Source: a bacterium (GTDB taxonomy: Bacteria > Patescibacteriota > Minisyncoccia > Moranbacterales > UBA2206). From it: a stretch of DNA of 64,000 nucleotides. The stretch covers positions 3,124-67,123 of the forward strand of contig JAJYGF010000004.1 of NCBI GenBank assembly GCA_021785125.1, read 5' to 3'. Below the pieces are notes generated by a model. The model was given only the letters and a program-made list of their open reading frames with translations, searched no databases and had not been told where the DNA came from. Positions 2,039 through 59,769 of the stretch are shown here, in pieces. The position numbers were made by a program, and so were the translations under genes. Positions within the stretch are counted from its first letter, which is position 1; every line of letters starts with the position of its first letter.

Positions 2039-2281
2039 CTATTTTTTGAAGTGTTCTTTTAATTTTCTTCTTCCGGCGCCGCTTTTCCAATATAATTCAC
2101 GCCTCTTTGCTTCAATTTCAGTTTCAAAATCTTCTTTAAAAAGTAATCTAAATGGCTTCCTGTGTTTTGTAGATTTAACTCTGCCTTGATTATGTTCTTG
2201 AAATCTCCTCTCAAAATCATTCGAATACCCAACGTAAGTTCTTAAATCTTTTAAACTTTGTAAAATATAAGTTGAATACAT
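2039..2281 (-). CDS. GIY-YIG nuclease family protein (UPF0213/YhbQ-like, catalytic domain only)
   Basis: YILQS...YVGYSNDFERRFQEHNQG matches GIY-YIG motif; 80 aa. Confidence 0.8.
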   Translation of the reverse strand: MYSTYILQSLKDLRTYVGYSNDFERRFQEHNQGRVKSTKHRKPFRLLFKEDFETEIEAKRRELYWKSGAGRRKLKEHFKK

Positions 2282-2530: not shown

Positions 2531-2843
2531 TGCCTGGAGTCAGAATTGAACTGACGACACGAGGATTTTCCTCTATATTTGTCTTGGGTTTCCCACAAGG
2601 ATCGGACTATTTCTTCACCGCTCGGTAACCGAGTACGGTGTTAGGCGCTCACGCAAGATTATTGTTGGGACTCACTCGCTAGTCTCTACACCTTCTTCAG
2701 GATCAAGGCCCGCTGAAGCTTGGCTCGAGATTGCCATATCTGTGAAGATTTAGGCTTCCTCGAATTCACCTAATTTTTAAGACTGCATTACTGCAGAATG
2801 GACCGAAAACCAGTCCTCTGCTCTACCACTGAGCTATCCAGGC
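2531..2843 (-). tRNA. tRNA-Phe (anticodon GAA) interrupted by an intron in the anticodon loop; 5' exon 2812-2843, 3' exon 2531-2570
   Basis: Joined exons GCCTGGATAGCTCAGTGGTAGAGCAGAGGACT|GAAAATCCTCGTGTCGTCAGTTCAATTCTGACTCCAGGCA is near-identical to E. coli tRNA-Phe; exons separated by 241 nt. Confidence 0.75.
2571..2811 (-). ncRNA. group I self-splicing intron (ORF-less, ~241 nt) in tRNA-Phe anticodon loop
   Basis: 5' splice site after U33 with exon GGACU pairing to intron GGUCC (U.G wobble, P1); P2 hairpin CUGCA-GUAA-UGCAG (GNRA loop); R-like GUAGAGACUAGC and S-like AAAUAGUCCG elements forming P7 (GACUA/UAGUC); intron ends in G before exon GAAAAUCCUC. Boundaries +/-2 nt. Confidence 0.7.
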
Positions 2844-2937: not shown

Positions 2938-2954
2938 ATAATATTTTAAAATTG

Positions 2955-3038
2955 TGGGCGAAAGAGGACTCGAACCTCCAAGGGATTACTCCCACAAGCA
3001 CCTCAAGCTTGCGCGTATACCAGTTCCGCCATCCGCCC
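2955..3038 (-). tRNA. tRNA-Leu (anticodon GAG), long variable arm
   Basis: GGGCGGA..CAAGC TTGAGGT GCTTG + variable stem-loop GGGA-GTAA-TCCC + GGAGG TTCGAGT CCTCT TTCGCCC A. Confidence 0.8.
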
Positions 3039-3065
3039 ACATGAATGCGGTGAATATACCAATTC

Positions 3066-3097
3066 CCCGCCTCGACTCGCCGTCTCGGCGAGGCGGG
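3066..3097. other. GC-rich stem-loop immediately downstream of rplS (possible processing/termination structure; weak U-tract)
   Basis: cccgcctcgactcgccg tct cggcgag gcggg. Confidence 0.3.
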
Positions 3098-3116
3098 CAC
3101 CACGAAGGCGTGGAAA

Positions 3117-3563
3117 CTATTTTGTTTCTTCTATTTTTTCTTCTTTAGCTTCAGCGATAGCTTCTTCAGCAACCGGCTCAGCCGCAACCGGAGCTTCTTC
3201 CGGAACGATTGAAGCGGCTTCCTTATATTTCATGCGGCTCTTCTTGGCGGTCAAACCTCTCAAAAAATATAATTTTGCTCTTCGAACTTTGGCAGTTTTG
3301 ACCAGTTCAATCTTATCGATGCTTGGAGAATAGATCGGCAGGATCAGCTCGACTCCCACACCATTGGAAACTTTCCGCACAGTGATGGTTGGAGAAGAGC
3401 TCTGCTTTCCCTTAACGGCGATAATCAATCCCTCAAATACCTGAACCCTATCCTTCTCGCCTTCTTTGATCTTGCGATAAACTTTCACAACATCCCCAGA
3501 CTTGAAATCAGAGGCTTGTTTTGTCCTTTGTTCCTTGTTGAATTCGATAACTTTCTTTTGCAT
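3117..3563 (-). CDS. rplS: 50S ribosomal protein L19
   Basis: Full-length match to L19 pattern (GDVVKVYRKIKEGEKDRVQVFEGLIIAVKG...); acidic C-terminal tail. Confidence 0.9.
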   Translation of the reverse strand: MQKKVIEFNKEQRTKQASDFKSGDVVKVYRKIKEGEKDRVQVFEGLIIAVKGKQSSSPTITVRKVSNGVGVELILPIYSPSIDKIELVKTAKVRRAKLYFLRGLTAKKSRMKYKEAASIVPEEAPVAAEPVAEEAIAEAKEEKIEETK

Positions 3564-20639: not shown

Positions 20640-22031
20640 CTATAAATAGAACTTTTTTAACATGCTCAGATACTCGGGTATTTCTTTTGCCACTTTTTTG
20701 ACAGCATTATGTCCGAATATCCCGATGAAAAAATAATCGAGATTCAGGCGTATCCCATGGCGCAAAACATAGCCCCAGGAGTAGAATTTTTCCAACGCGG
20801 CGATGACTGAATTCTGCATTTGCTCCGGAGTCATACTTGCTGGAAGAAACACGACATGCTGACCATCATAACTACCCCACCTCCTGTGCAAAATCATCCC
20901 TTCGTTGCTCATCTGCTTATAAAGCTGAGTACCGGGCAAGGGCGTAATCAGCATAATTTGGATCGACTGCAAGCGCTTGCGGGCAAACCGGGTAATTTCC
21001 AACGCCGTTTTTGCATCGTCGGTATTCGCGCCGACGATGAACATCCCATGGATATCAATCTTTCTTTTGCGTATTTCTTTAATCGCTGACTCGATGTCTT
21101 TCACGGTTTGCTTTTTGTTGTAGGCGTCCAGAGTTGCCTGACTTACCGACTCAAAGCCAATAAAAAGCGTCCGTACCCCTGATTGAGCCAAAAGATCCAG
21201 AAGTTCAGGATCCTTGGCAACATCTGCTCTGACCTGTGCAGAGAGACTTATGTTGAGGTTTTCTTCGATTATCCTCCTTGATAACCGAGCTGTCCGTTTT
21301 CGGTTCGCAGCATAGTTATCGTCGATGATGAAAAATTTCCTATAGCCCAGATCATATGCATACCTGAGCTCGGAAATAACAGCATCATCGGAGCGGAAAC
21401 GCATAGCCCGGCCAAACATCGCCGTCACCGAACAGAAGTTGCACTCAAATGGACATCCGCGTGAAGTAGCGATCGGATAATGCCTTATCTTTTGATAGCC
21501 CCTCACTAACGTAATATCCATCATAGGAATTTCATCAAGGTCCGGCGTCAGTTCGCGATCTTTGTTCCGATATGTTTCACCCCTATGTCGGAACGACAAA
21601 CCATCAATGGATTTAAGTTTTGCGTAAGCATCCTTAAACATGGACGGTGCCATAAAATACTCGACGAGCTCCATGATGGTCTTTTCTCCTTCTCCGCGTA
21701 CCACAAAATCACAATGAAGCAACGCTTCATCAGGCAGAAAAGTCACATGGGGTCCGCCCATAACCACGATCTTCCCTATACTTCGCAGTTGATCTGCGAG
21801 CGCATAAGCCCTTTCCGCCGTCGGAGTAATCGTTGAGATGCCGATGATATCAAAATCCATACGGTTAATGTCAATCGGCACCAAATCCTCGATAAAAACT
21901 TCTGTTTCCAACGCGTTCCCATGTTTCAATCGCAGCAAGGTTGCCATCTCGATTATCCCGCGCCTGGGAATGGGAAATTTCTTAAAGAAATGCACGCCTG
22001 GAGAGCTCGGTTCAACAAATGCAAACTTCAT
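20640..22031 (-). CDS. B12-binding domain radical SAM protein
   Basis: N-terminal cobalamin-binding-like domain; ATSRGCPFECNFCSV CxxxCxxC radical SAM motif. Confidence 0.85.
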   Translation of the reverse strand: MKFAFVEPSSPGVHFFKKFPIPRRGIIEMATLLRLKHGNALETEVFIEDLVPIDINRMDFDIIGISTITPTAERAYALADQLRSIGKIVVMGGPHVTFLPDEALLHCDFVVRGEGEKTIMELVEYFMAPSMFKDAYAKLKSIDGLSFRHRGETYRNKDRELTPDLDEIPMMDITLVRGYQKIRHYPIATSRGCPFECNFCSVTAMFGRAMRFRSDDAVISELRYAYDLGYRKFFIIDDNYAANRKRTARLSRRIIEENLNISLSAQVRADVAKDPELLDLLAQSGVRTLFIGFESVSQATLDAYNKKQTVKDIESAIKEIRKRKIDIHGMFIVGANTDDAKTALEITRFARKRLQSIQIMLITPLPGTQLYKQMSNEGMILHRRWGSYDGQHVVFLPASMTPEQMQNSVIAALEKFYSWGYVLRHGIRLNLDYFFIGIFGHNAVKKVAKEIPEYLSMLKKFYL

Positions 22032-22127
22032 CGTTTTATTCCTTTCAAAAGAGGGTTTATATTTTCAAGATTTGTTCATCATTTGATTTTTAAGCAGCTT
22101 ATACCAATTTCGCACCATATCCGCCCT

Positions 22128-23672
22128 ATGTCAATTAATGCTATAATAAAATCAATGAATAATCTGACAAAACTTTTAAAAAACTTCAAAACAAACCCGG
22201 ACATCTGGTTTTTTTATGGCTTTTTGGCAACCTTCACTCTTTCTATCCGGAAAGTCTTATTTTTTTACCCAATACACGGACAGTTCAATGAGTATTCCGG
22301 GATCTATCTTTATCTAAGCGATATATTTCTAATCTTAGCCTTCATAAGCCATTTTTTTAAATTATACAATAATAATTATAATTTGTCAATAAAAAAAGGG
22401 GGTCGGGTTACATTATCAAAATTGTTCCACGTGGAACAATTATTTTTTATGCTTATCATTTTAGCCTTTTTTTCCTTATTTTGGGCCTCAAACAAAAACG
22501 TCGCGGTTTTTGGATCATTAAAATTACTGGAATTGTTCTTACTTGTTCTTTATGTTTCACGTAGAATTGTTCCACGTGGAACAATTCTGAAAAATTCTTT
22601 CGGGCTGATAATTATTTTCGGATTGATTCAATCCATCATAGGCATCTGGCAATTTATCATCCAACATTCGATTGGATTTTTTTGGCTGAAAGAAAGCCTA
22701 ATCTCACCAAGCATCTCTGGAGTTGCCAAATTAGTCTTTGGGGGAAACAAAATGATCCGTGCCTACGGCTTGTTTCCACATCCCAATATTCTGGGCGGTT
22801 TTTTGTTGGTTTCCATAATTCTAACATTATCAAGCCAAAAAATGTTCTGCACCCATCCAGAAGGAAAAAAATGTTCCACGTGGAACATTTTTTCTTCCGC
22901 AAAGATGAATCAACGTGCGCTTTGGATCATTACTCTGATTCAAATAGTCGCGCTCCTTCTGACATTTTCAAAATCAGCCATGATGGGACTCATAGTTAGT
23001 TTGACATACATATTTGTTCCACGTGGAACAAATTGGCGAAATTTGACCAGGGTTGCAAAAAATGTTCCACGTGGAACACAAAAACAGCTCTTCTTGGCAG
23101 GACTGATTATTCTGGTACTGACATATTTATTCCATCCAAGCACTAATTCTTTCATAACCAAGTCGATCCAAGATCGTTTATTCTTAACAAATGTTTCACG
23201 TGGAACAATTTTGTCTAATCCAATATTTGGCTTAGGCATAGGACAATTCGTAATTGATATGCAAAGATACTATTCCAACAAACTTTTGGATTGGCAGTTT
23301 CAACCTGTCCATAACGTGTTTATCCTAATTTGGGCAGAATTAGGGCTGATCGGACTGCTAATTTTCATCATTCTACTGTGGAAAATGTTCCACGTGGAAC
23401 ACAAACTCGGAACAGACACAAAATGTTCCACGTGGAACATTCCTTTTGAAGCAGAGCATTTATCAATTCCAAATAACAAGACAAATGTTCCACGTGGAAC
23501 AATTCTCAACTCACAAGACATCCAAGTGGCCTTCAAAGGAATCTTGCTTGGATTTATCTTCATCATGCTTTTTGATCATTATTTCTGGGATATCCAGCAA
23601 GGAGAAATAATGTTTTGGCTTGTTATAAGTATTATTGTTGGACTAGAACCAAAAAGTACTATTGACAAATAA
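22128..23672 (+). CDS. O-antigen ligase/polymerase (Wzy_C)-like polytopic membrane protein carrying multiple in-frame palindromic insertions
   Basis: Many TM segments; LTFSKSAMMGLIVSL resembles Wzy_C core; start moved to MSINAI after the convergent radical SAM gene; peptide segments CSTWN / VPRGT / FHVEH are translations of the same 16-bp palindrome in three frames. Confidence 0.6.
   Translation: MSINAIIKSMNNLTKLLKNFKTNPDIWFFYGFLATFTLSIRKVLFFYPIHGQFNEYSGIYLYLSDIFLILAFISHFFKLYNNNYNLSIKKGGRVTLSKLFHVEQLFFMLIILAFFSLFWASNKNVAVFGSLKLLELFLLVLYVSRRIVPRGTILKNSFGLIIIFGLIQSIIGIWQFIIQHSIGFFWLKESLISPSISGVAKLVFGGNKMIRAYGLFPHPNILGGFLLVSIILTLSSQKMFCTHPEGKKCSTWNIFSSAKMNQRALWIITLIQIVALLLTFSKSAMMGLIVSLTYIFVPRGTNWRNLTRVAKNVPRGTQKQLFLAGLIILVLTYLFHPSTNSFITKSIQDRLFLTNVSRGTILSNPIFGLGIGQFVIDMQRYYSNKLLDWQFQPVHNVFILIWAELGLIGLLIFIILLWKMFHVEHKLGTDTKCSTWNIPFEAEHLSIPNNKTNVPRGTILNSQDIQVAFKGILLGFIFIMLFDHYFWDIQQGEIMFWLVISIIVGLEPKSTIDK
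22431..23501. repeat. cluster of 9 copies (plus one half-site) of perfect palindrome TGTTCCACGTGGAACA, often extended to AATGTTCCACGTGGAACATT
   Basis: Copies centred near 22440, 22576, 22880, 23022, 23070, 23200 (1 mismatch), 23394, 23432, 23494; irregular spacing; all inside one CDS. Confidence 0.9.
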
Positions 23673-47528: not shown

Positions 47529-47647
47529 TAATTTTTATAATTTTTAATTTTGTAATTTTATAAATAAATCTAAATTTTTAATGTTTAAACATTTAGAAAT
47601 TAGAAAATTATTTAAAAATTAAAAATTGGAAATTAAAAATTTAAACT

Positions 47648-50120: not shown

Positions 50121-50147
50121 TTCACAACGCTTGCATTTGTGGTATAA
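50121..50147 (+). promoter_or_regulatory. sigma70-like promoter with extended -10 (TTCACA-16-TGgTATAAT)
   Basis: ttcaca acgcttgcatttgtgg tataat; transcript would include the 20-bp inverted-repeat pair 50160-50179 / 50264-50283. Confidence 0.45.
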
Positions 50148-50159
50148 TCCAAGTGATGA

Positions 50160-50283
50160 ATCCCGCACTAACTTTGGATAGCAATAAAATTTATACCACA
50201 TCGAAAGGGCGGGAATCTATAAAAAATAAATAGCCTTGGTTTTTATTGGAGAAATTTAATAAAATCCAAAGTTAGTGCGGGAT
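50160..50283 (+). promoter_or_regulatory. perfect 20-bp inverted repeat pair (ATCCCGCACTAACTTTGGAT / ATCCAAAGTTAGTGCGGGAT) forming a ~124-nt hairpin whose right arm contains the start codon of 50282-51193
   Basis: Left arm 50160-50179, right arm 50264-50283; ATG at 50282-50284. Confidence 0.7.
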
Positions 50284-51193
50284 GAAAATAAAAAAATCGA
50301 CACATCTTTTGATTTTGACGATGCTGGCTTTCGGAAGCTTCGCTTTTTACGTGACCGCACAGGAACAAGGATCAGATCCATTGACCTCGACTCCCACAAC
50401 CGGTGATTCTTCGCTTTTGACCAACGCCGATGCGATTGGCGCCGCTGCCGGAACGACCCCAGCGGCAACTCCTGCCGATCCGAACAATCTGACCCAACAA
50501 GTGTCCCAACAAATTTCCACCGCCATGAACGCGGCCAGCCAGAGCAACCAAGATATCAGTCTGGACCAGATAAAAAGCATCGTCAGCCAATCGCTGAACG
50601 CGACCGTAAAAGATTCCGACTTACCGCAGATTCCCGCAAGCGACATCAAAGTCAAGACGGAAAACTACGGCAATCTGCCGGCCGACAAGGCCGCCGAAAA
50701 GAAAAAGGAAGATGTGGCTGATTATCTGGTCAGCATGGCCTATATCCTATCCAGCAACTCTCCGACTCCGATCACTTCTTCGGATGATACGACAAGCTTG
50801 GAGAATAGCATAACCGGACAATTATCCACCGCCCTAACTACCCAGAATCCGGCCGCTCTCAAAGATTTGAGCGACAGTGGTGCGAAAGTTTTGGGCCAGA
50901 TGAAAAACGTGGAGGTGCCGCAAGATTTGGTCGACATCCACAAAAAAGGCTTGCAACTGGCGGAATATGCCATGCAGCTGCAGAACAAGATCAGTCCGAA
51001 TAGCGCGGATCCGCTGTCCGACATCGCCAACTATGCCAAAATGGAAGCTTTGATCGGAGTCACCGCCAATTATGCCAGCGATGCGGCCGGCAAATTGGAC
51101 CAATACGGCCTGACGATCGGAGACGTGCAGAATAAATTGAACACCTACGGCATCAATATTCCGTCCGACTTGTCGCAAAAACTGTCGCAATAA
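50282..51193 (+). CDS. hypothetical secreted protein (signal peptide, A/S/T/Q-rich)
   Basis: MKIKKSTHLLILTMLAFGSFAFYVTAQEQG signal-like N-terminus. Confidence 0.5.
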   Translation: MKIKKSTHLLILTMLAFGSFAFYVTAQEQGSDPLTSTPTTGDSSLLTNADAIGAAAGTTPAATPADPNNLTQQVSQQISTAMNAASQSNQDISLDQIKSIVSQSLNATVKDSDLPQIPASDIKVKTENYGNLPADKAAEKKKEDVADYLVSMAYILSSNSPTPITSSDDTTSLENSITGQLSTALTTQNPAALKDLSDSGAKVLGQMKNVEVPQDLVDIHKKGLQLAEYAMQLQNKISPNSADPLSDIANYAKMEALIGVTANYASDAAGKLDQYGLTIGDVQNKLNTYGINIPSDLSQKLSQ

Positions 51194-52475: not shown

Positions 52476-52793
52476 ATGAATATGAATAAATCCAAAATAA
52501 TCGCAAACAAGCTCTTCTGGTTCTTAAGAAGAAACGGGGTTGCTTTGGAACCGTCCAGGGATCGCCATCTCATTATCAACCAAACATTGGCCATGGGATC
52601 CATGGATGACATACAGAAGCTTTTTCATGAATATGACAAAGAAACCATCCGCGAAGAGTTTCGAAAGCCTGCGGCAGGCCTGTATGCGCCTGCGGTTTTG
52701 CATTTTTTTGAATACATTCTCGATGTTCAATTGAATAATAGCGAACAATATATAAAAAAAATACATGGAAAGCCTACACCTGGACATTCTTGA
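52476..52793 (+). CDS. hypothetical protein, possible antitoxin partner of downstream nucleotidyltransferase
   Basis: 105 aa; overlaps next ORF by 29 nt; apparently leaderless. Confidence 0.4.
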   Translation: MNMNKSKIIANKLFWFLRRNGVALEPSRDRHLIINQTLAMGSMDDIQKLFHEYDKETIREEFRKPAAGLYAPAVLHFFEYILDVQLNNSEQYIKKIHGKPTPGHS

Positions 52794-53418
52794 TCAAGAA
52801 CGAAAAGATTTGTTCCAAAAATTATCAGCATTTCACTCTCTTGGTTATTTATCCGGTGGAACATCGCTGGCATTGCAATTAGGACATCGCATATCCTATG
52901 ATTTTGATATTTTCTGCCCGAAGGAAATTTCAGAATCGTTTGCGGCCAAGGTTCAAAAGGAGATTCCCGTGAAGGAAGTGCTTATAAACAACAGTGATGA
53001 ATTCACATTTCTTACCGGACAAGACATCAAAATATCTTTTATTTTTTATCCCTTTGATTTGAGGGAATATCTGCTTGAATTTTCAGGAGCTCCTTTGCTC
53101 TTTGCTTCTCCCATAGGCGTGGCATTGACAAAAGCGTATGCCCTGAACAGAAGAAATGCCTGGCGGGATTATGTCGATTTATATACGATATTAAAAAAGG
53201 GCATCGTAAAACTTGAGGAAATTATACAAAAATCGCAAGAAGTTTATGGAAATTTGTTCAATGAAAAGCTTTTTCTGGCCCAGCTTGTGTATACGAAAGA
53301 CATCTCTGAAGCGGAAATCGCCGGCACGCAGATGATCAAACCGACAACGCTTCAGGAAGTCGCCGCATTTTTTGAAAAAGAAGTCACGGCTTACGTGGAA
53401 AGAAAATTGGGCCAATAA
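52765..53418 (+). CDS. nucleotidyltransferase, AbiEii/AbiGii-like (DUF1814-like) toxin family
   Basis: YLSGGTSLALQLGHRISYDFDIF resembles the GGTAL...RxSxDxD motif of AbiEii. Confidence 0.45.
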   Translation: MESLHLDILDQERKDLFQKLSAFHSLGYLSGGTSLALQLGHRISYDFDIFCPKEISESFAAKVQKEIPVKEVLINNSDEFTFLTGQDIKISFIFYPFDLREYLLEFSGAPLLFASPIGVALTKAYALNRRNAWRDYVDLYTILKKGIVKLEEIIQKSQEVYGNLFNEKLFLAQLVYTKDISEAEIAGTQMIKPTTLQEVAAFFEKEVTAYVERKLGQ

Positions 53419-53438
53419 CATTATTAAAATGATTCCGC

Positions 53439-53515
53439 CAAACAGCCTGAATTTGTCGAGGCTGTTTTTTTGTATTATCTTATAGCGATAAACCTTCGGC
53501 GGATGTTGATTTTAT
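53439..53515 (+). repeat. direct repeat copy 2 (identical 77 bp): terminator + promoter -35 cassette
   Basis: Same sequence as 52380-52456; TTGATT-17-TAAAAT then ATG 53541 six nt after -10. Confidence 0.85.
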
Positions 53516-53540
53516 GCCCGATTAGTACTAAAATAAACTC

Positions 53541-53831
53541 ATGAGCAAGCAAGAAATAAAGCAAAAAATCAACAAACAGCTTCCATTCTTGAAAGCCAGA
53601 TACCATATCAAGCGTATCGGCATTTTTGGTTCATTCGTACGCAACGAACAAAAAAAGGGGAGCGACTTGGACATTCTGGTGGAATTTGAAACACCCATCG
53701 GTTTTTTCGAGTTTATCCGACTGGAAAATGAATTGAGCCGCACCTTGCGCCACAAAGTGGACCTGGTTTCCAAAAATGCCGTTAAACCGGCGGTGAAGAA
53801 AGAAATTTTAAAAGAAATTCAATATGTCTAG
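53541..53831 (+). CDS. minimal nucleotidyltransferase (MNT/MntA-like antitoxin)
   Basis: GIFGSFVRNEQKKGSDLDILVEF = GSxxRGxxxxxSDxDxxV polymerase-beta NTase motif. Confidence 0.75.
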   Translation: MSKQEIKQKINKQLPFLKARYHIKRIGIFGSFVRNEQKKGSDLDILVEFETPIGFFEFIRLENELSRTLRHKVDLVSKNAVKPAVKKEILKEIQYV

Positions 53832-54183
53832 GCGAGGAATAAGGCTTTATCTGGAGGATATCCGCACATCCATCCGAAGGATAGAACAATACACGCGCGG
53901 AGTAAGTTTTGACGAATTTTATCGCAATCATCTGATGATTGACGCAGTTGTAAGAAATCTTACGATTATCGGCGAAGCAGTCAAAAATATTCCGACTGAA
54001 TTGAAGTCCAAAAATCCTGAAGTCGCATGGAAAGAAATCAAGGGCATGCGAAACAAAGTTATACATGAATATTTTGGAACTGACGAAGAAATTTTATGGA
54101 AGACCGTTCAGGATGACATTCCGGTTTTCAAAAAACAAATTGCCAAACTTTTGAAAGATAGCAAGCAAAAGGACTTAAAATAG
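53824..54183 (+). CDS. HEPN/DUF86 (HepT-like toxin) protein
   Basis: RNKVIHEY = Rx4-6H HEPN motif; overlaps MNT gene by 8 nt. Confidence 0.75.
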   Translation: MSRRGIRLYLEDIRTSIRRIEQYTRGVSFDEFYRNHLMIDAVVRNLTIIGEAVKNIPTELKSKNPEVAWKEIKGMRNKVIHEYFGTDEEILWKTVQDDIPVFKKQIAKLLKDSKQKDLK

Positions 54184-54256
54184 ACGCCCCAATGGCTATT
54201 TTTATTTTCCCCGGTTGATTTTTGCCTTATTTCAGGCAAAATCAGACATACCCTTG

Positions 54257-54544
54257 CCCAGCACTAACTTTCACTCCGTCGTATGCATTATGTATATATT
54301 ATAAAAAATGAAATTGATGAACTGTATTATGGATGCACAAACAACCTAAAGAAAAGATTTTTTGAGCATAATAGCGGCGAATCTTTTTCTACCAAGAATC
54401 ATGAATGGAAATTAGCCTATTATGAGGCTTATTTAAGGGAAGAAGATGCCTGGAATCGTGAAAAACAACTAAAAAGGCATGGACAAGCTTTGGCTCAACT
54501 AAAGCGCAGAATCAAAAAATCTTTAAGTGAAAGTTAGTGCTGGG
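54257..54544 (+). mobile_element. 288-bp unit: GIY-YIG gene bracketed by perfect 19-bp inverted repeats (CCCAGCACTAACTTTCACT / AGTGAAAGTTAGTGCTGGG)
   Basis: Left arm 54257-54275 ends 7 nt before ATG 54283; right arm 54526-54544 contains the stop codon; arm core GCACTAACTTT is shared with the 50160/50264 inverted-repeat pair. Confidence 0.5.
54283..54537 (+). CDS. GIY-YIG nuclease family protein (second paralog)
   Basis: VYIIKNEIDELYYGCTNNLKKRFFEHNSG GIY-YIG motif. Confidence 0.8.
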   Translation: MHYVYIIKNEIDELYYGCTNNLKKRFFEHNSGESFSTKNHEWKLAYYEAYLREEDAWNREKQLKRHGQALAQLKRRIKKSLSES

Positions 54545-54545
54545 T

Positions 54546-54574
54546 TGACTTTTTCTGCCAGATGTGCTAGTATA
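54546..54574 (+). promoter_or_regulatory. sigma70-like promoter (TTGACT-17-TAGTAT) with strong RBS (AAAGGAGGAG) before 54676
   Basis: ttgact ttttctgccagatgtgc tagtat; aaaggaggagag atg. Confidence 0.5.
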
Positions 54575-54675
54575 TACAGTTACGCTAGTAAAGTGCGGTT
54601 ATTTTAAAACCGAATATCAATCAACAATCATTTTCGCCCGGAAGGCGAAGGCTCAATTGAGCCAAAGGAGGAGAG

Positions 54676-55092
54676 ATGAAAGACTTCGTATTGGCAATAA
54701 TAGCCGCGGCTATAGTAACCACCGTTGCATTTGTCATTGTTTTTTCGACTCATCACAACACAACCCCTATCATGCCCAAATATCCTAACCTGTCTCCGGA
54801 AGGACAGCAACGGATGGCTATGATCAAATCGGCGATAGCAAAATATCTGCCCAACATGTTACCCGACATGTTACCCGACATATCAAATCAAAAAGTGTCC
54901 CCGAGCTTTAAACTAGTGGACGTTTCCGAAAAACCGAAAGATGGTTGGCACTACCATGGATACATCCAGCTGTCGGACGGGAGACGTATTTTATTCCAGG
55001 CAAATTATTGGAACATAAGCAATGGCCAGGTGCAAGTTTGGCTGTCCACGGCCACGAAGACATACGGCCTGCTTGATTACCCTAACGGGTAG
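54676..55092 (+). CDS. hypothetical membrane-anchored protein
   Basis: N-terminal TM; contains tandem MLPD repeat. Confidence 0.5.
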   Translation: MKDFVLAIIAAAIVTTVAFVIVFSTHHNTTPIMPKYPNLSPEGQQRMAMIKSAIAKYLPNMLPDMLPDISNQKVSPSFKLVDVSEKPKDGWHYHGYIQLSDGRRILFQANYWNISNGQVQVWLSTATKTYGLLDYPNG

Positions 55093-57035: not shown

Positions 57036-58049
57036 ATGCCCGAACTAAATCAAAACACAGAAATCAAAATAGATAGGTATATTATTCCTTGGGATGTTTC
57101 TATTACCAAAAATCCGGATGATGAAACATTTGAAATAATCGCAGAATTCCAAAAAAAATTCCTATCCTTGCCTGGATCTGTTCAGGATAAGCTAGTTTCA
57201 AAAAAAACCGGTGAAAAAATCCAAAGCATCGGCATGAACTTTGGTTTAAGCATGCCTCAAATAGCCAATATTGCCCGCGCTGTCAGAAGCTATTATTTCG
57301 GCGAATTAAAATTGGAAGACCTGCCGTTTTATTTGGCCAAAGAAATCCCCATCGACTTATCTAAAGCTCAAGAAATTTCAAGAATGGTTATTGAAAAAAT
57401 CATCAATGACCGGTCCATTGAGCAAGCCCGCCAGGCCGAATTAGAAAGTACAACGCTTTCTGACGCATTGAAAAAATATCCGGAAATCGGCGAACAGCTC
57501 ATCACTTCCGATCGAATCAACATCAAAAGCTTTCCTGAGCCAGCAAGACCATCGATCAAGAATTGGCTGGCGGACTACACTTTCGTCCTCGGATACGGCA
57601 CCCATGACGCCATCGCCAGGGCCAATTATATGTTCCAAGGCACCAATGCCAGAAACCTGGCTTCCACTGATCGGGAAAGATTGGCCTATATCTTGAAATC
57701 ATATGATGAAAACACATTGGTCACCGTGGATAAGAATGAGAAAAAGATTGTTTTTCCGACATCCGACAAGAGACAAGAACCGCCAAGGTCGGACCTTGGC
57801 CAGGCAAATGACAACTCGAAGGTCCGACCTTTGAACATTCCCCAAGCGCCATCAAGGTCGGACCTTGAAACCGCTTCGACCACCAAAATCAGCTATTCTT
57901 CGCCGCAGAAATTGCCGTATGAAAAAATGAGAACACAGCAACAGCCGTACCGCATAACGCCGATATATGGACAACAGAAAAAAGAAGAGCCGAAGAAAGA
58001 CGAGAGAATCCTGAATAAAAATGTCGTAGACCTGAGAGATAGTATGTAA
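57036..58049 (+). CDS. hypothetical protein (T4SS-like cluster)
   Basis: 337 aa, soluble, repeated PPRSDLGQA / PSRSDLETA motif. Confidence 0.45.
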   Translation: MPELNQNTEIKIDRYIIPWDVSITKNPDDETFEIIAEFQKKFLSLPGSVQDKLVSKKTGEKIQSIGMNFGLSMPQIANIARAVRSYYFGELKLEDLPFYLAKEIPIDLSKAQEISRMVIEKIINDRSIEQARQAELESTTLSDALKKYPEIGEQLITSDRINIKSFPEPARPSIKNWLADYTFVLGYGTHDAIARANYMFQGTNARNLASTDRERLAYILKSYDENTLVTVDKNEKKIVFPTSDKRQEPPRSDLGQANDNSKVRPLNIPQAPSRSDLETASTTKISYSSPQKLPYEKMRTQQQPYRITPIYGQQKKEEPKKDERILNKNVVDLRDSM

Positions 58050-58095
58050 TTTTAAATTTGAAATTTAAAATTTTGAATCAATTTTCAATTTATAA

Positions 58096-58461
58096 ATGAC
58101 TGAATATTCCGAAAAATACGACTTGGAAACAAGAACGTCAAAATTCAGCGGTGAAATAATATTATTTATTAAAAGTTTAAATAAAGATATAATAAACGCG
58201 CCCTTAATAAGCCAGTTGATCAGATCCGCGACTAGTATTGGCGCGAATTACTGCGAAGCAAATGGAGCCAGTTCGAAAAAAGATTTTCACAATAAAATAT
58301 ACATTTGTAAAAAAGAATGCAAGGAAACAAAATACTGGCTAGAACTACTTGCAAAAGCAAACCAAGACAAAAAAGACAAATGCAGAGAGCTTTGGAAAGA
58401 AGCTCAGGAACTGACCCTGATATTTTCTAAAATTGCATTAACATTAAAAAACAAGAAGTGA
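58096..58461 (+). CDS. four-helix-bundle protein (23S rRNA intervening-sequence protein family)
   Basis: SATSIGANYCEAN...SKKDFHNKIYICKKECKETKYWLELL matches the family pattern; flanked both sides by AATTTAAAATTT-type repeats. Confidence 0.65.
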   Translation: MTEYSEKYDLETRTSKFSGEIILFIKSLNKDIINAPLISQLIRSATSIGANYCEANGASSKKDFHNKIYICKKECKETKYWLELLAKANQDKKDKCRELWKEAQELTLIFSKIALTLKNKK

Positions 58462-58523
58462 TTTAAAATTTAGTAATTTGAATTTCATTTTAAATTTTAA
58501 ATTTAAAATTTCAAATTTGATCC

Positions 58524-58937
58524 ATGGCTCTGTTCAACATTCCACAATTCATCGACATCGAAGACAAGATCGTCGGGCCGCTGACCGCCAAGCAATTGGG
58601 CTGGCTGGCGGCCGGAGGAGTCGTCCTGCTCGTCCTTTGGAGCATGCTGGACATGTCCGCTTTCATCATGGCGGCGCTCATCGTCGGATTCATCTTCGGG
58701 ATGCTGGCTTTTTACCGCCCCAATAACCAATCATTGCTGGTCTATATCCTTTCGGTCTTTTCTTTTTTTACCAAACCGAAAATGTATGTCTGGATACGGG
58801 TTCCCGAGATTGAAAAAGCCAAGAAGAAAGCCGTTGTCAAGAAGATGCAGGCCGCAACAGCCGCACCAAAAGGGATAAATGAGAATAAGATAGAAGAAAT
58901 AACCGATTTGCTCAGCAAATCGAATTTAAAATTTTAA
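58524..58937 (+). CDS. PrgI/VirB3-like small membrane protein
   Basis: FIDIEDKIVGPLTAKQLGWLAAGGVVLLVLW two-TM pattern typical of PrgI family upstream of VirB4. Confidence 0.45.
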   Translation: MALFNIPQFIDIEDKIVGPLTAKQLGWLAAGGVVLLVLWSMLDMSAFIMAALIVGFIFGMLAFYRPNNQSLLVYILSVFSFFTKPKMYVWIRVPEIEKAKKKAVVKKMQAATAAPKGINENKIEEITDLLSKSNLKF

Positions 58938-58960
58938 ATTTATAATTTTAAATTTCCCGA

Positions 58961-59647
58961 ATGGAAACATTGCATTCGAAAAAAATAACCAAACCGACCA
59001 CAACTGCCGCCTCGCAGCAGTTTTTGGATGTGGCCGAGATCAAGGAAGATGTGGTCGTTCTGAAAAGCGGATCGTTCCGTTCGATCCTGGCGGTTTCCGC
59101 CATCAATTTCGACCTGAAATCTTCCGACGAACAGGAGGCGATCATCAATCAATACCAAAATTTTCTCAATTCCTTGGATTTTCCAATCCAAGTCTTGGTC
59201 AGTTCGCGCAAACTGAACATCGACAAATACCTCGAATTCATCGAAGAAAAAGAAAAGCAGCAGAACAACGAGCTCTTGAAGCTCCAGGTTTCCGAATACA
59301 AGAATTTTATCGGGCAGCTGGTGGAAGTTTCCAACATCATGGACAAAAATTTCTACATCGTCGTCCCGTTCTCTCCGGTGGAAAACAAAGAGAAAGGGTT
59401 TTTTTCCAATATCCTGAGCACGTTCAATCCGAAAAAAAACATCCTCGAGAAACGAGAAAATTTCGAAACCTACAAAAGCCAGCTTTTCCAGCGCATCGAC
59501 CACATCACCGCTTCGCTTTCCGGCATCGGCTTGCGCATCGCTCCGCTCAAGACCCAAGAACTGATCGAATTGATATATAACTCATACAATCCGAACCTGT
59601 ATCTGGATACGCAGTTGGGGGATGTGGAGAAATTGGAATTAAAATAA
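58961..59647 (+). CDS. hypothetical protein (T4SS-like cluster)
   Basis: 228 aa; segment VVVLKSGSFRSILAVSAINFDLKSSDEQEAI loosely resembles VirB4 N-terminal region. Confidence 0.4.
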   Translation: METLHSKKITKPTTTAASQQFLDVAEIKEDVVVLKSGSFRSILAVSAINFDLKSSDEQEAIINQYQNFLNSLDFPIQVLVSSRKLNIDKYLEFIEEKEKQQNNELLKLQVSEYKNFIGQLVEVSNIMDKNFYIVVPFSPVENKEKGFFSNILSTFNPKKNILEKRENFETYKSQLFQRIDHITASLSGIGLRIAPLKTQELIELIYNSYNPNLYLDTQLGDVEKLELK

Positions 59648-59769
59648 TTTTAAATTATAAATTTAAAATTTTAAGTCAATTTTAACTGACCAAATTAATA
59701 AATTTTAAAATTTAAATATTCGGATTTCATTTTAAATTTAAAATTGAAAAATTTAAAATTTTAGTTACT

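Follow-up and report, generated by a model that had tools for sequence, protein, structure and literature searches.

The 64,000-nt window analysed here (assembly GCA_021785125.1, contig JAJYGF010000004.1) comes from a bacterium of the Moranbacterales, and contains two short units that both end in perfect inverted repeats. One of them (54257-54544) is 288 bp long and carries a single open reading frame (ORF), encoding an 84-amino-acid (aa) GIY-YIG nuclease. The other (50161-50282) carries no ORF, and is located at the start of a gene encoding a 303-aa secreted protein. The GIY-YIG unit and its immediate surroundings consist of the following features:

54254-54256, no strand: left flank TTG, the apparent remnant of a 4-bp target duplication TTGA, of which the A is missing here and intact in relatives.
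54257-54275, plus strand: left terminal inverted repeat, CCCAGCACTAACTTTCACT; the outer 15 nt are conserved in the subfamily, and the inner 4 nt covary with the right arm.
54283-54537, plus strand: ORF of the predicted 84-aa UPF0213/Slx1-like GIY-YIG nuclease, its last four codons with the stop lying inside the right arm.
54526-54544, plus strand: right terminal inverted repeat, the perfect reverse complement of the left arm, overlapping the codons S-E-S and the TAG stop.
54545-54573, plus strand: right flank, starting with TTGA (the right duplication copy), which is part of the -35 hexamer TTGACT.

The original prediction had described this 19-bp bracket, and all its coordinates are correct in the sequence: the ATG at 54283 is placed 7 nt past the left arm, and the TAG stop (54535-54537) falls within the right one. 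Neither a promoter nor a Shine-Dalgarno sequence of its own was found for the ORF in the window sequence and, because of this, the gene would be expressed by host read-through transcription. A promoter built from the left TTGA and the arm was considered and rejected, as the sequences inspected contain no -10-like hexamer at a suitable spacing. The right flank of the unit contains a promoter-like site, TTGACT-17-TAGTAT (TG-extended), upstream of a gene encoding a 138-aa protein. The GIY-YIG protein of the window is encoded on 13 contigs, and the unit and its immediate flanks are identical on all seven contigs read (NCBI, ENA, and Logan assemblies). Since the same sequence and flanks recur on at least seven contigs from different samples, the unit is not an assembly artefact.

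The second unit and its host gene are arranged as follows:

50121-50148, plus strand: host promoter-like site TTCACA-16-TATAAT (11/12), preceded by TG, which would transcribe through the ORF-less unit.
50157-50160, no strand: left copy of the duplication TGAA; together with A50156, it represents the displaced original ATGAA.
50161-50282, no strand: ORF-less unit of 122 bp (TCCCGCAC...GTGCGGGA), resembling a miniature inverted-repeat transposable element (MITE), in its best delimitation (T...A), with TGAA on both sides.
50283-50286, no strand: right copy of TGAA; A50282, the last base of the unit, and the following TG form the working ATG of the secreted-protein gene.

The arms of this unit, ATCCCGCACTAACTTTGGAT, are found at 50160-50179 and 50264-50283, with 84 nt between them; they are 19 nt long (20 nt with the flanking A/T), and extend to 32 nt at 84% when mismatches are allowed. 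They share 14 of 19 positions with the arms of the GIY-YIG unit, including an 11-nt core. This pair, its core, and the reach of its right arm into an ATG had been reported correctly, as had the extended -10 promoter upstream of the secreted-protein gene (the TG-extended match at 50121-50148). The ATG is located at 50282-50284, and its AT constitutes the final two bases of the right arm.

A coincidental origin of these repeats, which had already been doubted on the basis of the two pairs, has nothing in its favor beyond the shortness of the arms and is by now refuted, the chance that it holds being vanishingly small. The 11-mer core occurs exactly four times in the 64 kb, namely in the four arms. 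Each full arm matches only its own two sites in the window, even with 3 mismatches, and none of 100 shuffled sequences gave two matches to either arm. The same bracket, moreover, surrounds 124 of 158 homologues.

Two collection scans added 160 loci to the homologues first found; the pooled set contains 158 unique homologous GIY-YIG ORFs, from bacteria of the candidate phyla radiation (CPR) and other phyla. With only perfect arms being scored, a bracketing inverted repeat of at least 11 nt (range 11-24 nt) is present for 124 of them (78%), and one of at least 14 nt for 96, while mismatched pairs of left and right flanks, used as a background control, reach 11 nt in only 5% of cases. Many of the unbracketed ORFs have imperfect arms or are frameshifted copies that keep the left arm. 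The ORF-bearing units measure about 265-370 bp and encode proteins of about 77-95 aa. Arms starting with CC(N0-3)CAC are found in 93 of the 124 bracketed units, versus 1% of the background, with (C/T)CCC(A/G)CAC as the consensus. Homologues that are 77-81% identical reside in unrelated gene neighborhoods, each within a perfect bracket of 19-20 nt; their brackets have a common outer sequence, (A)CCC[CA]GCACTAACTTT, and an inner end that differs from one homologue to another but stays complementary. The carriers include many CPR lineages, Omnitrophota, Planctomycetes, Nitrospira, Bacillota, Desulfotomaculum, Lagierella, and Methylococcales. A profile search at E<=1e-3 retrieved 21,288 representatives of 50%-identity clusters; at E<=1e-10, 3,370 of them remained. 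By tblastn, no match at 1e-6 was obtained among plasmid and phage records; the subfamily is, thus, not known from such replicons.

Several units occur more than once in the same genome. Two contigs of equal coverage from one assembly (L008 and L009) contain a 293-bp unit that is 100% identical between them; the identity reaches precisely as far as the outer arm ends, the flanks beyond are unrelated, and the copy in L009 adjoins a TTGA duplication. One contig (L150) harbors two units that are 97.8% identical and have different flanks, and another (L114) harbors three ORF-bearing units and one empty unit in tandem. A direct repeat of at least 4 bp in the flanks is found for 23 of 70 bracketed units (33%), versus 3% in the null, a roughly tenfold enrichment, and the usual duplication is 4 bp when the start of the unit is set at the run of C. 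These comparisons show that the units evidently move as DNA, with boundaries exactly at the repeat ends. Two traits expected of a transposon are, therefore, present: terminal inverted repeats that mark the exact ends of the unit (the perfect 19-bp arms in the window, the identity boundary of L008 and L009) and several copies at different loci of one genome (L008/L009, L150, L114). None of the known catalytic classes of transposase (DDE, HUH, serine, or tyrosine) is encoded by the unit, the sole ORF of which is the GIY-YIG nuclease.

It is against this background that a domesticated nuclease has to be considered, namely an immobile host gene that maintains dispersed palindromes, the arms being two such repeats. 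Its layout would be that of the genes for REP-associated tyrosine transposases (RAYT), which are bracketed by inverted copies of a dispersed repetitive extragenic palindrome (REP). The strong purifying selection on the protein, and the single copy of the window subfamily within the window, agree with this idea. Nevertheless, an immobile gene is hardly compatible with ORF-bearing units that recur, identical or nearly so, at separate loci within a genome, the tandem array of L114, the frameshifted copies (L020 and L110), or close homologues in unrelated contexts of different genomes, each with its own target-site duplication; we consider such a host gene improbable.

ORF-less units are also common. 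About 40 of them, 54-145 bp in length, were found in the flanks of the fetched loci, with perfect arms and the termini of the family; within a given genome, the arms of the ORF-less units are similar to those of the ORF-bearing one. Several are flanked by 4-bp duplications (TTGA, TAAA, TTTA, GTTA, or TGAA). The ORF-less unit of the window has the structural traits of a MITE: it is short, devoid of an ORF, bounded by terminal inverted repeats and a target-site duplication, and its termini are cognate to those of an ORF-bearing element. It is homologous to, and shares inner sequence with, a 118-bp unit from another species (L013:1348-1465), which is also TGAA-duplicated. The small mobile-element family, with an autonomous and a MITE-like copy, that the original prediction had offered as one of two readings is, thus, borne out by the bracketing of 78% of the 158 homologues, the identical unit at two loci, the enriched duplications, and the approximately 40 ORF-less units. 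It is strongly supported, and far more general than had been proposed, the search of relatives for further copies bounded by inverted repeats having returned many ORF-bearing and ORF-less units.

The abundance of ORF-less units whose termini are shared with the ORF-bearing ones could also be read the other way round. Dispersed palindromes (MITE-like, REP-like, or the stems of intervening sequences) would then be primary and spread by other means, and the GIY-YIG gene would be a selfish homing gene that cuts their center and becomes copied into them, its arms being the two halves of a split target. GIY-YIG is a classical homing-endonuclease fold, and some ORFs have a hairpin unit on one side only (L054, L065, L107). 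In four Methylococcales 23S ribosomal RNA (rRNA) genes (L059, L091, L148, L165, the first belonging to the complete genome of the cultured strain Methylotuvimicrobium sp. KM1), the ORF has a complete hairpin unit of about 100 bp on either side (arms CCCCGCACCTAAATT), the whole being nested near the helix-25 site. The identity between the units of L008 and L009, however, covers the arms in full and breaks off at their outer limits, where the L009 copy adjoins a TTGA duplication. The start and stop codons overlap the arms in many members, which means that gene and arms evolve as one unit. In L013, the arms of the ORF-bearing and empty units are similar but not identical, with a different inner sequence, and the protein lacks the DNA-binding modules of known homing enzymes. 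Homing into palindromes is, thus, an unlikely origin for the family, although it deserves some weight.

The ORF-less unit of the window also provides a simple account of the start codon that appeared to be caged by its right arm, and for which regulation by occlusion had been suggested. The arrangement is best explained as a by-product of insertion at TGAA inside ATGAAA: the terminal A of the unit and the duplicated TG rebuild an ATG, and the arm, therefore, encloses the start codon. In L013, the ATGAA adjoining the unit is not a gene start. At three syntenic loci (L177-L179), the promoter sequence TGGTATAAT is kept and the ORF-less unit is missing; the toxin-antitoxin genes, the GIY-YIG unit, and the 138-aa gene farther downstream are missing as well. 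As these relatives are only 45-48% identical, with a diverged leader, they are supportive rather than clean empty sites. The idea that the 303-aa gene had been leaderless before the insertion, with a -10 box 7 nt from the old ATG, was dropped, the leaders of its orthologues being about 45-70 nt long. In L178 (approximately 2440-2485, and likewise in L179), the leader orthologous to this site contains a perfect palindrome of 22 bp with another sequence, ACCTAAAGCCAAGCTTTAGGAA/TTCCTAAAGCTTGGCTTTAGGT; a second kind of hairpin element has, therefore, struck the same interval between promoter and start codon.

The pairing of the arms is under clear constraint. Over 21 units of the window subfamily, the 19-bp stem is 99.2% paired, and 7 of its 19 pairs have changed on both sides, giving 49 compensated cells; none of 500 shuffles reached the observed level, and pairing falls to 32-48% in slid controls. 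There is next to no variation in the outer 15 nt, where changes are confined to positions 1, 4, and 9, each varying together with its partner. Meanwhile, synonymous sites in the ORF are saturated (dS, the synonymous divergence, is mostly >1.6 or incalculable, and dN, the nonsynonymous one, is 0.12-0.28, apart from one near-identical pair). As the outer arm is near-invariant despite this saturation and the inner arm covaries, the former is under sequence constraint and the latter under pairing constraint. The compensatory changes in the right arm even alter the C-terminal residues that it overlaps (SES, SKS, or NKS). All 22 isolated arm mismatches are transitions, which, on the sense strand, read as 12 G.U versus 10 A.C, and only 2 of 399 cells in the subfamily stem alignment are G.U. 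Selection on RNA only should tolerate G.U, and no bias towards it is seen; pairing is, therefore, apparently maintained in DNA, or on both strands. Both units of the window also fold as single-stranded DNA.

These data bear on the other reading that had been put forward, that of a device acting primarily in RNA, in which pairing of the arms in the transcript sequesters or circularizes the nuclease mRNA and gates translation of the secreted protein. The predicted RNA folds are in line with it, both stems being part of the minimum-energy structure, at -86.3 kcal/mol (z -8.3) for one unit and -43.7 kcal/mol (z -6.2) for the other. So are the compensatory changes that conserve pairing, the almost invariable sense orientation of the units relative to host transcripts, and the start codon of the 303-aa gene, which is partly within a stem. 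Nevertheless, the even split of G.U and A.C mismatches and the rarity of G.U cells are not what such a device would leave behind. It accounts neither for the target duplications, nor for identical copies at new loci, nor for ORF-less copies at unrelated sites, duplications around the latter requiring a DNA-level process. In addition, orthologous leaders keep the promoter without the unit, and at Rfam gathering thresholds no family, including any intron model or known cis-regulatory RNA, matches 50160-50283 or 54257-54544. As the main purpose of the repeats, an RNA device is, thus, very improbable. RNA-level side effects are another matter: by analogy with rRNA intervening sequences, the stem could undergo RNase III cleavage, or it could block translation, and the strict sense orientation of the units fits such effects.

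Comparison of the flanking sequences reveals three recurrent types of apparent target: -35 hexamers, the ends of DnaA boxes, and hairpin loops of rRNA. TTGA is found on both sides of nine units, and its right copy constitutes the start of a -35 hexamer, so that the promoter is rebuilt. Seven of ten TTGA right flanks have a -10-like hexamer at 16-18 nt, versus 7.4% of all TTGA sites, and the GIY-YIG unit of the window is among the units with this promoter-like spacing. A perfect DnaA-box 9-mer adjoins seven independent units, the duplication being TGTG or TTAT, where a calculated 0.01 or so would be expected by chance. The possibility that the DnaA-box flanks are orthologous sites was rejected, as these flanks have no tblastx similarity; for the same reason, four DnaA-box loci represent separate insertion events.

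At least 35 of the 158 units are located inside rRNA genes (16 in 16S and 19 in 23S), as determined with Rfam and by BLAST against rRNA references. These insertions are located in conserved hairpins, one of the regions concerned being that of the classical intervening-sequence site in 23S helix 25. All 35 rRNA copies are in sense orientation and, outside rRNA, 33 of the 39 units with co-directional neighbors share their orientation. Eight units from Omnitrophota and Planctomycetes (L024, L053, L067, L070, L079, L087, L090, L135) display a further inverted repeat, CCGAATTTGA...TTTAATTCG, on the outside of the usual arms, which suggests that they are nested in a different palindromic element or were inserted at a conserved hairpin; for L079 and L087, no Rfam match was found. 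In L106 (approximately 2950-3300), the repeat on either side of the homologue, CTTGCCCCACACTATTATTCCCGTTGTACA (about 30 nt), is direct and not inverted.

The protein is a minimal domain with no extra modules. It matches the Pfam family GIY-YIG (PF01541) with an E-value of 3.8e-13 and 50 bits (cut-off 22.6); in NCBIfam, no family was found for it. Six residues (Y5, Y15, G17, R25, H29, and E48) are invariant over 32 homologues and are presumed, by analogy, to be catalytic, including the tyrosines of the GIY and YIG motifs, the arginine, and the metal-binding glutamate. The ratio dN/dS is about 0.1, indicating purifying selection. A search of the Protein Data Bank with the single sequence gave no match, and a profile search was needed: it retrieved the UPF0213 structures 1zg2 (E 7.9e-11) and 1ywl (E 2.8e-7), with I-TevI (1mk0) reaching only E 0.17. 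The AlphaFold2 model has a mean predicted local distance difference test (pLDDT) score of 94 and a beta-beta-alpha-beta-alpha topology, and its top Foldseek matches are 1zg2, 1ywl, and Slx1 (probability of about 1 for UPF0213 and Slx1). From profile and predicted fold, the protein is a UPF0213/Slx1-like standalone GIY-YIG nuclease.

Taken together, the two features of the window are probably copies of one family of very small DNA mobile elements, made up of an autonomous GIY-YIG unit, with terminal inverted repeats of about 12-24 bp, and ORF-less, MITE-like derivatives, an explanation that is held with reasonable though far from complete confidence. The GIY-YIG nuclease would be the mobility enzyme, recognizing the conserved outer arm. 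The arms would probably pair with each other in DNA to form a hairpin or cruciform, the kind of substrate expected of a structure-specific nuclease of the Slx1 type. The enzyme may cut the ends of the element, make a 4-nt staggered cut in the target (candidate target sequences being TTGACT and TGTGGATAA), or both, and host repair and ligation would complete the insertion. ORF-less units would be moved in trans by the nuclease. In transcripts, by analogy with rRNA intervening sequences, the stem is probably an RNase III site, which would make insertions in rRNA and in mRNA leaders tolerable. A mobile element accounts better than any of its rivals for the sharp boundaries, the duplications, and the ORF-bearing units present in several copies.

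A number of points weigh against this explanation. The link between the nuclease and the movement is one that we infer from sequence comparison, and the insertion step has no known precedent, because a hydrolytic GIY-YIG nuclease cannot itself join DNA; nor does the 84-aa protein have an obvious separate DNA-binding domain. Two thirds of the units have no clean duplication, and the GIY-YIG unit of the window is itself flanked by TTG and TTGA only, not by a full 4-bp duplication. There is one copy of each unit within the 64-kb window. Of the two signs of insertion that had been proposed for verification, duplications turned out to be enriched, but a clean empty site was found for neither window unit, since all close relatives carry both units with identical flanks, and the syntenic relatives without them are the diverged ones described above. 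The orientation bias could reflect the direction of replication instead of expression. Finally, the frequencies come from a sample, with at most 600 candidate stretches per scan.

The units resemble several known systems without coinciding with any of them. The closest parallel is with the REP/RAYT (REPIN-RAYT) and IS200/IS605 systems, in which one small gene of the nuclease type lies between inverted copies of a short palindrome, cognate hairpin-forming repeats without ORF are dispersed in the genome, the sequence is conserved and the stem covaries, and insertion is likely to depend on strand or orientation. These systems, however, rely on HUH/Y1 transposases, with a covalent intermediate and no target duplication, whereas the present enzyme is of the hydrolytic GIY-YIG type and 4-bp duplications are frequent; compared with REP/RAYT, it is also the gene-bearing unit itself that is multi-copy and mobile. 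Correia (nemis) MITEs of Neisseria are similar in length (about 100-150 bp), terminal inverted repeats, short duplications, and insertion near promoters and gene starts. Their stems, when transcribed, are RNase III substrates, as those of the present units would also be. Nevertheless, Correia elements have no known cognate enzyme and duplicate TA, whereas the present ORF-less units have an ORF-bearing partner that shares their termini, with a duplication of 4 bp.

The relatives of the window unit that are inserted, in sense orientation, near 23S helix 25 and in 16S hairpins resemble rRNA intervening sequences, and their complementary ends would extend the helix. The window units, by contrast, are outside rRNA (Rfam detects none in the window), and are, thus, not themselves rRNA intervening sequences; classical ORF-bearing intervening sequences, for their part, encode the unrelated 23S_rRNA_IVP protein. 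GIY-YIG ORFs in rRNA insertions of CPR bacteria have been reported as neither group I nor group II introns and as not homing-like (Tsurumaki et al. 2024, PMC11270868). In that article, the term 'inverted repeat' has no occurrence, and target duplications, empty copies, and non-rRNA sites are not mentioned.

Homing endonucleases of the GIY-YIG superfamily, such as I-TevI and Seg, have the same catalytic fold and a selfish lifestyle. They differ in being 200-250 aa long with DNA-binding modules, in residing within group I introns or free-standing in phages, and in lacking terminal inverted repeats; they also home to one cognate site, whereas close homologues of the present nuclease are found at unrelated sites. 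The only Rfam intron match in the window, at 2582-2821, is away from the GIY-YIG unit, which is, thus, not a homing gene within a group I intron. Slx1 and its bacterial UPF0213 relatives (BH0048, EF2693) are the closest proteins by profile and fold, and the ability of Slx1 to cut branched and hairpin-like DNA fits a substrate of paired arms; Slx1, however, has a RING domain and needs Slx4. In the superfamily survey by Dunin-Horkawicz et al. (2006), bacterial UPF0213 proteins are treated as vertically inherited relatives of Slx1, with no role assigned. In the openly accessible literature, no prior description was found of a prokaryotic GIY-YIG element with inverted repeats, or of an insertion sequence family with such an enzyme, the closest reports being PMC11270868 and PMC1564403. 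The mobile-element family is, thus, apparently undescribed so far.

The window contains further features of interest. The block 52476-55092, which comprises DUF6922/AbiEii and MNT/HepT toxin-antitoxin pairs, the GIY-YIG unit, and the 138-aa gene, is missing from the syntenic region of relatives, where a TrbL_3 gene directly follows the secreted-protein genes. A second, distant GIY-YIG ORF (2039-2281, minus strand, 80 aa) adjoins tRNA-Gly and weakly matches the group I intron endonuclease model TIGR01453. It was considered as a case of the same architecture and rejected, its bracket being a 22-nt direct repeat of 77% identity (2019-2040, 2346-2367) and not an inverted one. The group I intron itself (RF00028, 66.8 bits with Rfam; 2582-2821, minus strand) interrupts a tRNA-Phe(GAA) gene, which ARAGORN detects only when approximately 2572-2814 is removed in silico. 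Eight copies of a perfect palindrome, TTCCACGTGGAA, with arms of up to 22 nt, are found at 22425-23499 within the plus-strand ORF 21921-23672, a real Wzy_C (O-antigen-ligase-like) gene; as the copies fall in all three reading frames, they constitute a DNA-level motif and not a peptide repeat. The intergenic regions 47534-47639 and 58045-59766 are very AT-rich, and contain long imperfect inverted repeats of AATTTTAAATTT-type sequence.

A bolder proposal can be made only tentatively, its chances being somewhat short of even. The family would represent a DNA transposon class new to prokaryotes, its members (about 265-370 bp) being smaller than any autonomous mobile element known, with an Slx1-like nuclease, acting on the hairpin or cruciform formed by the complementary ends, as their only protein. 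The same enzyme would mobilize the MITE-like units, and many of the rRNA intervening sequences and REP-like palindromes of CPR bacteria, Omnitrophota, Firmicutes, and Methylococcales would have arisen from the family. The targeting of -35 hexamers and DnaA boxes, together with an RNase III-cleavable stem, may then be what renders these elements harmless in very compact genomes.

If true, the mobile-element role would provide a function for a very large family of bacterial UPF0213/Slx1-like mini-nucleases, extend the enzymes of prokaryotic transposons by one class, and lower the minimum size known for an autonomous element. Should the mechanism be confirmed, the small size and strict targeting (-35 hexamer and DnaA box) of the units could also make them useful as tools. 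Such elements would be a common source of the perfect palindromes that disturb gene starts, promoters, and the annotation of 16S and 23S genes in metagenome-assembled genomes, and they offer a concrete origin both for rRNA intervening sequences and for the non-intron GIY-YIG insertions in the rRNA genes of CPR bacteria.

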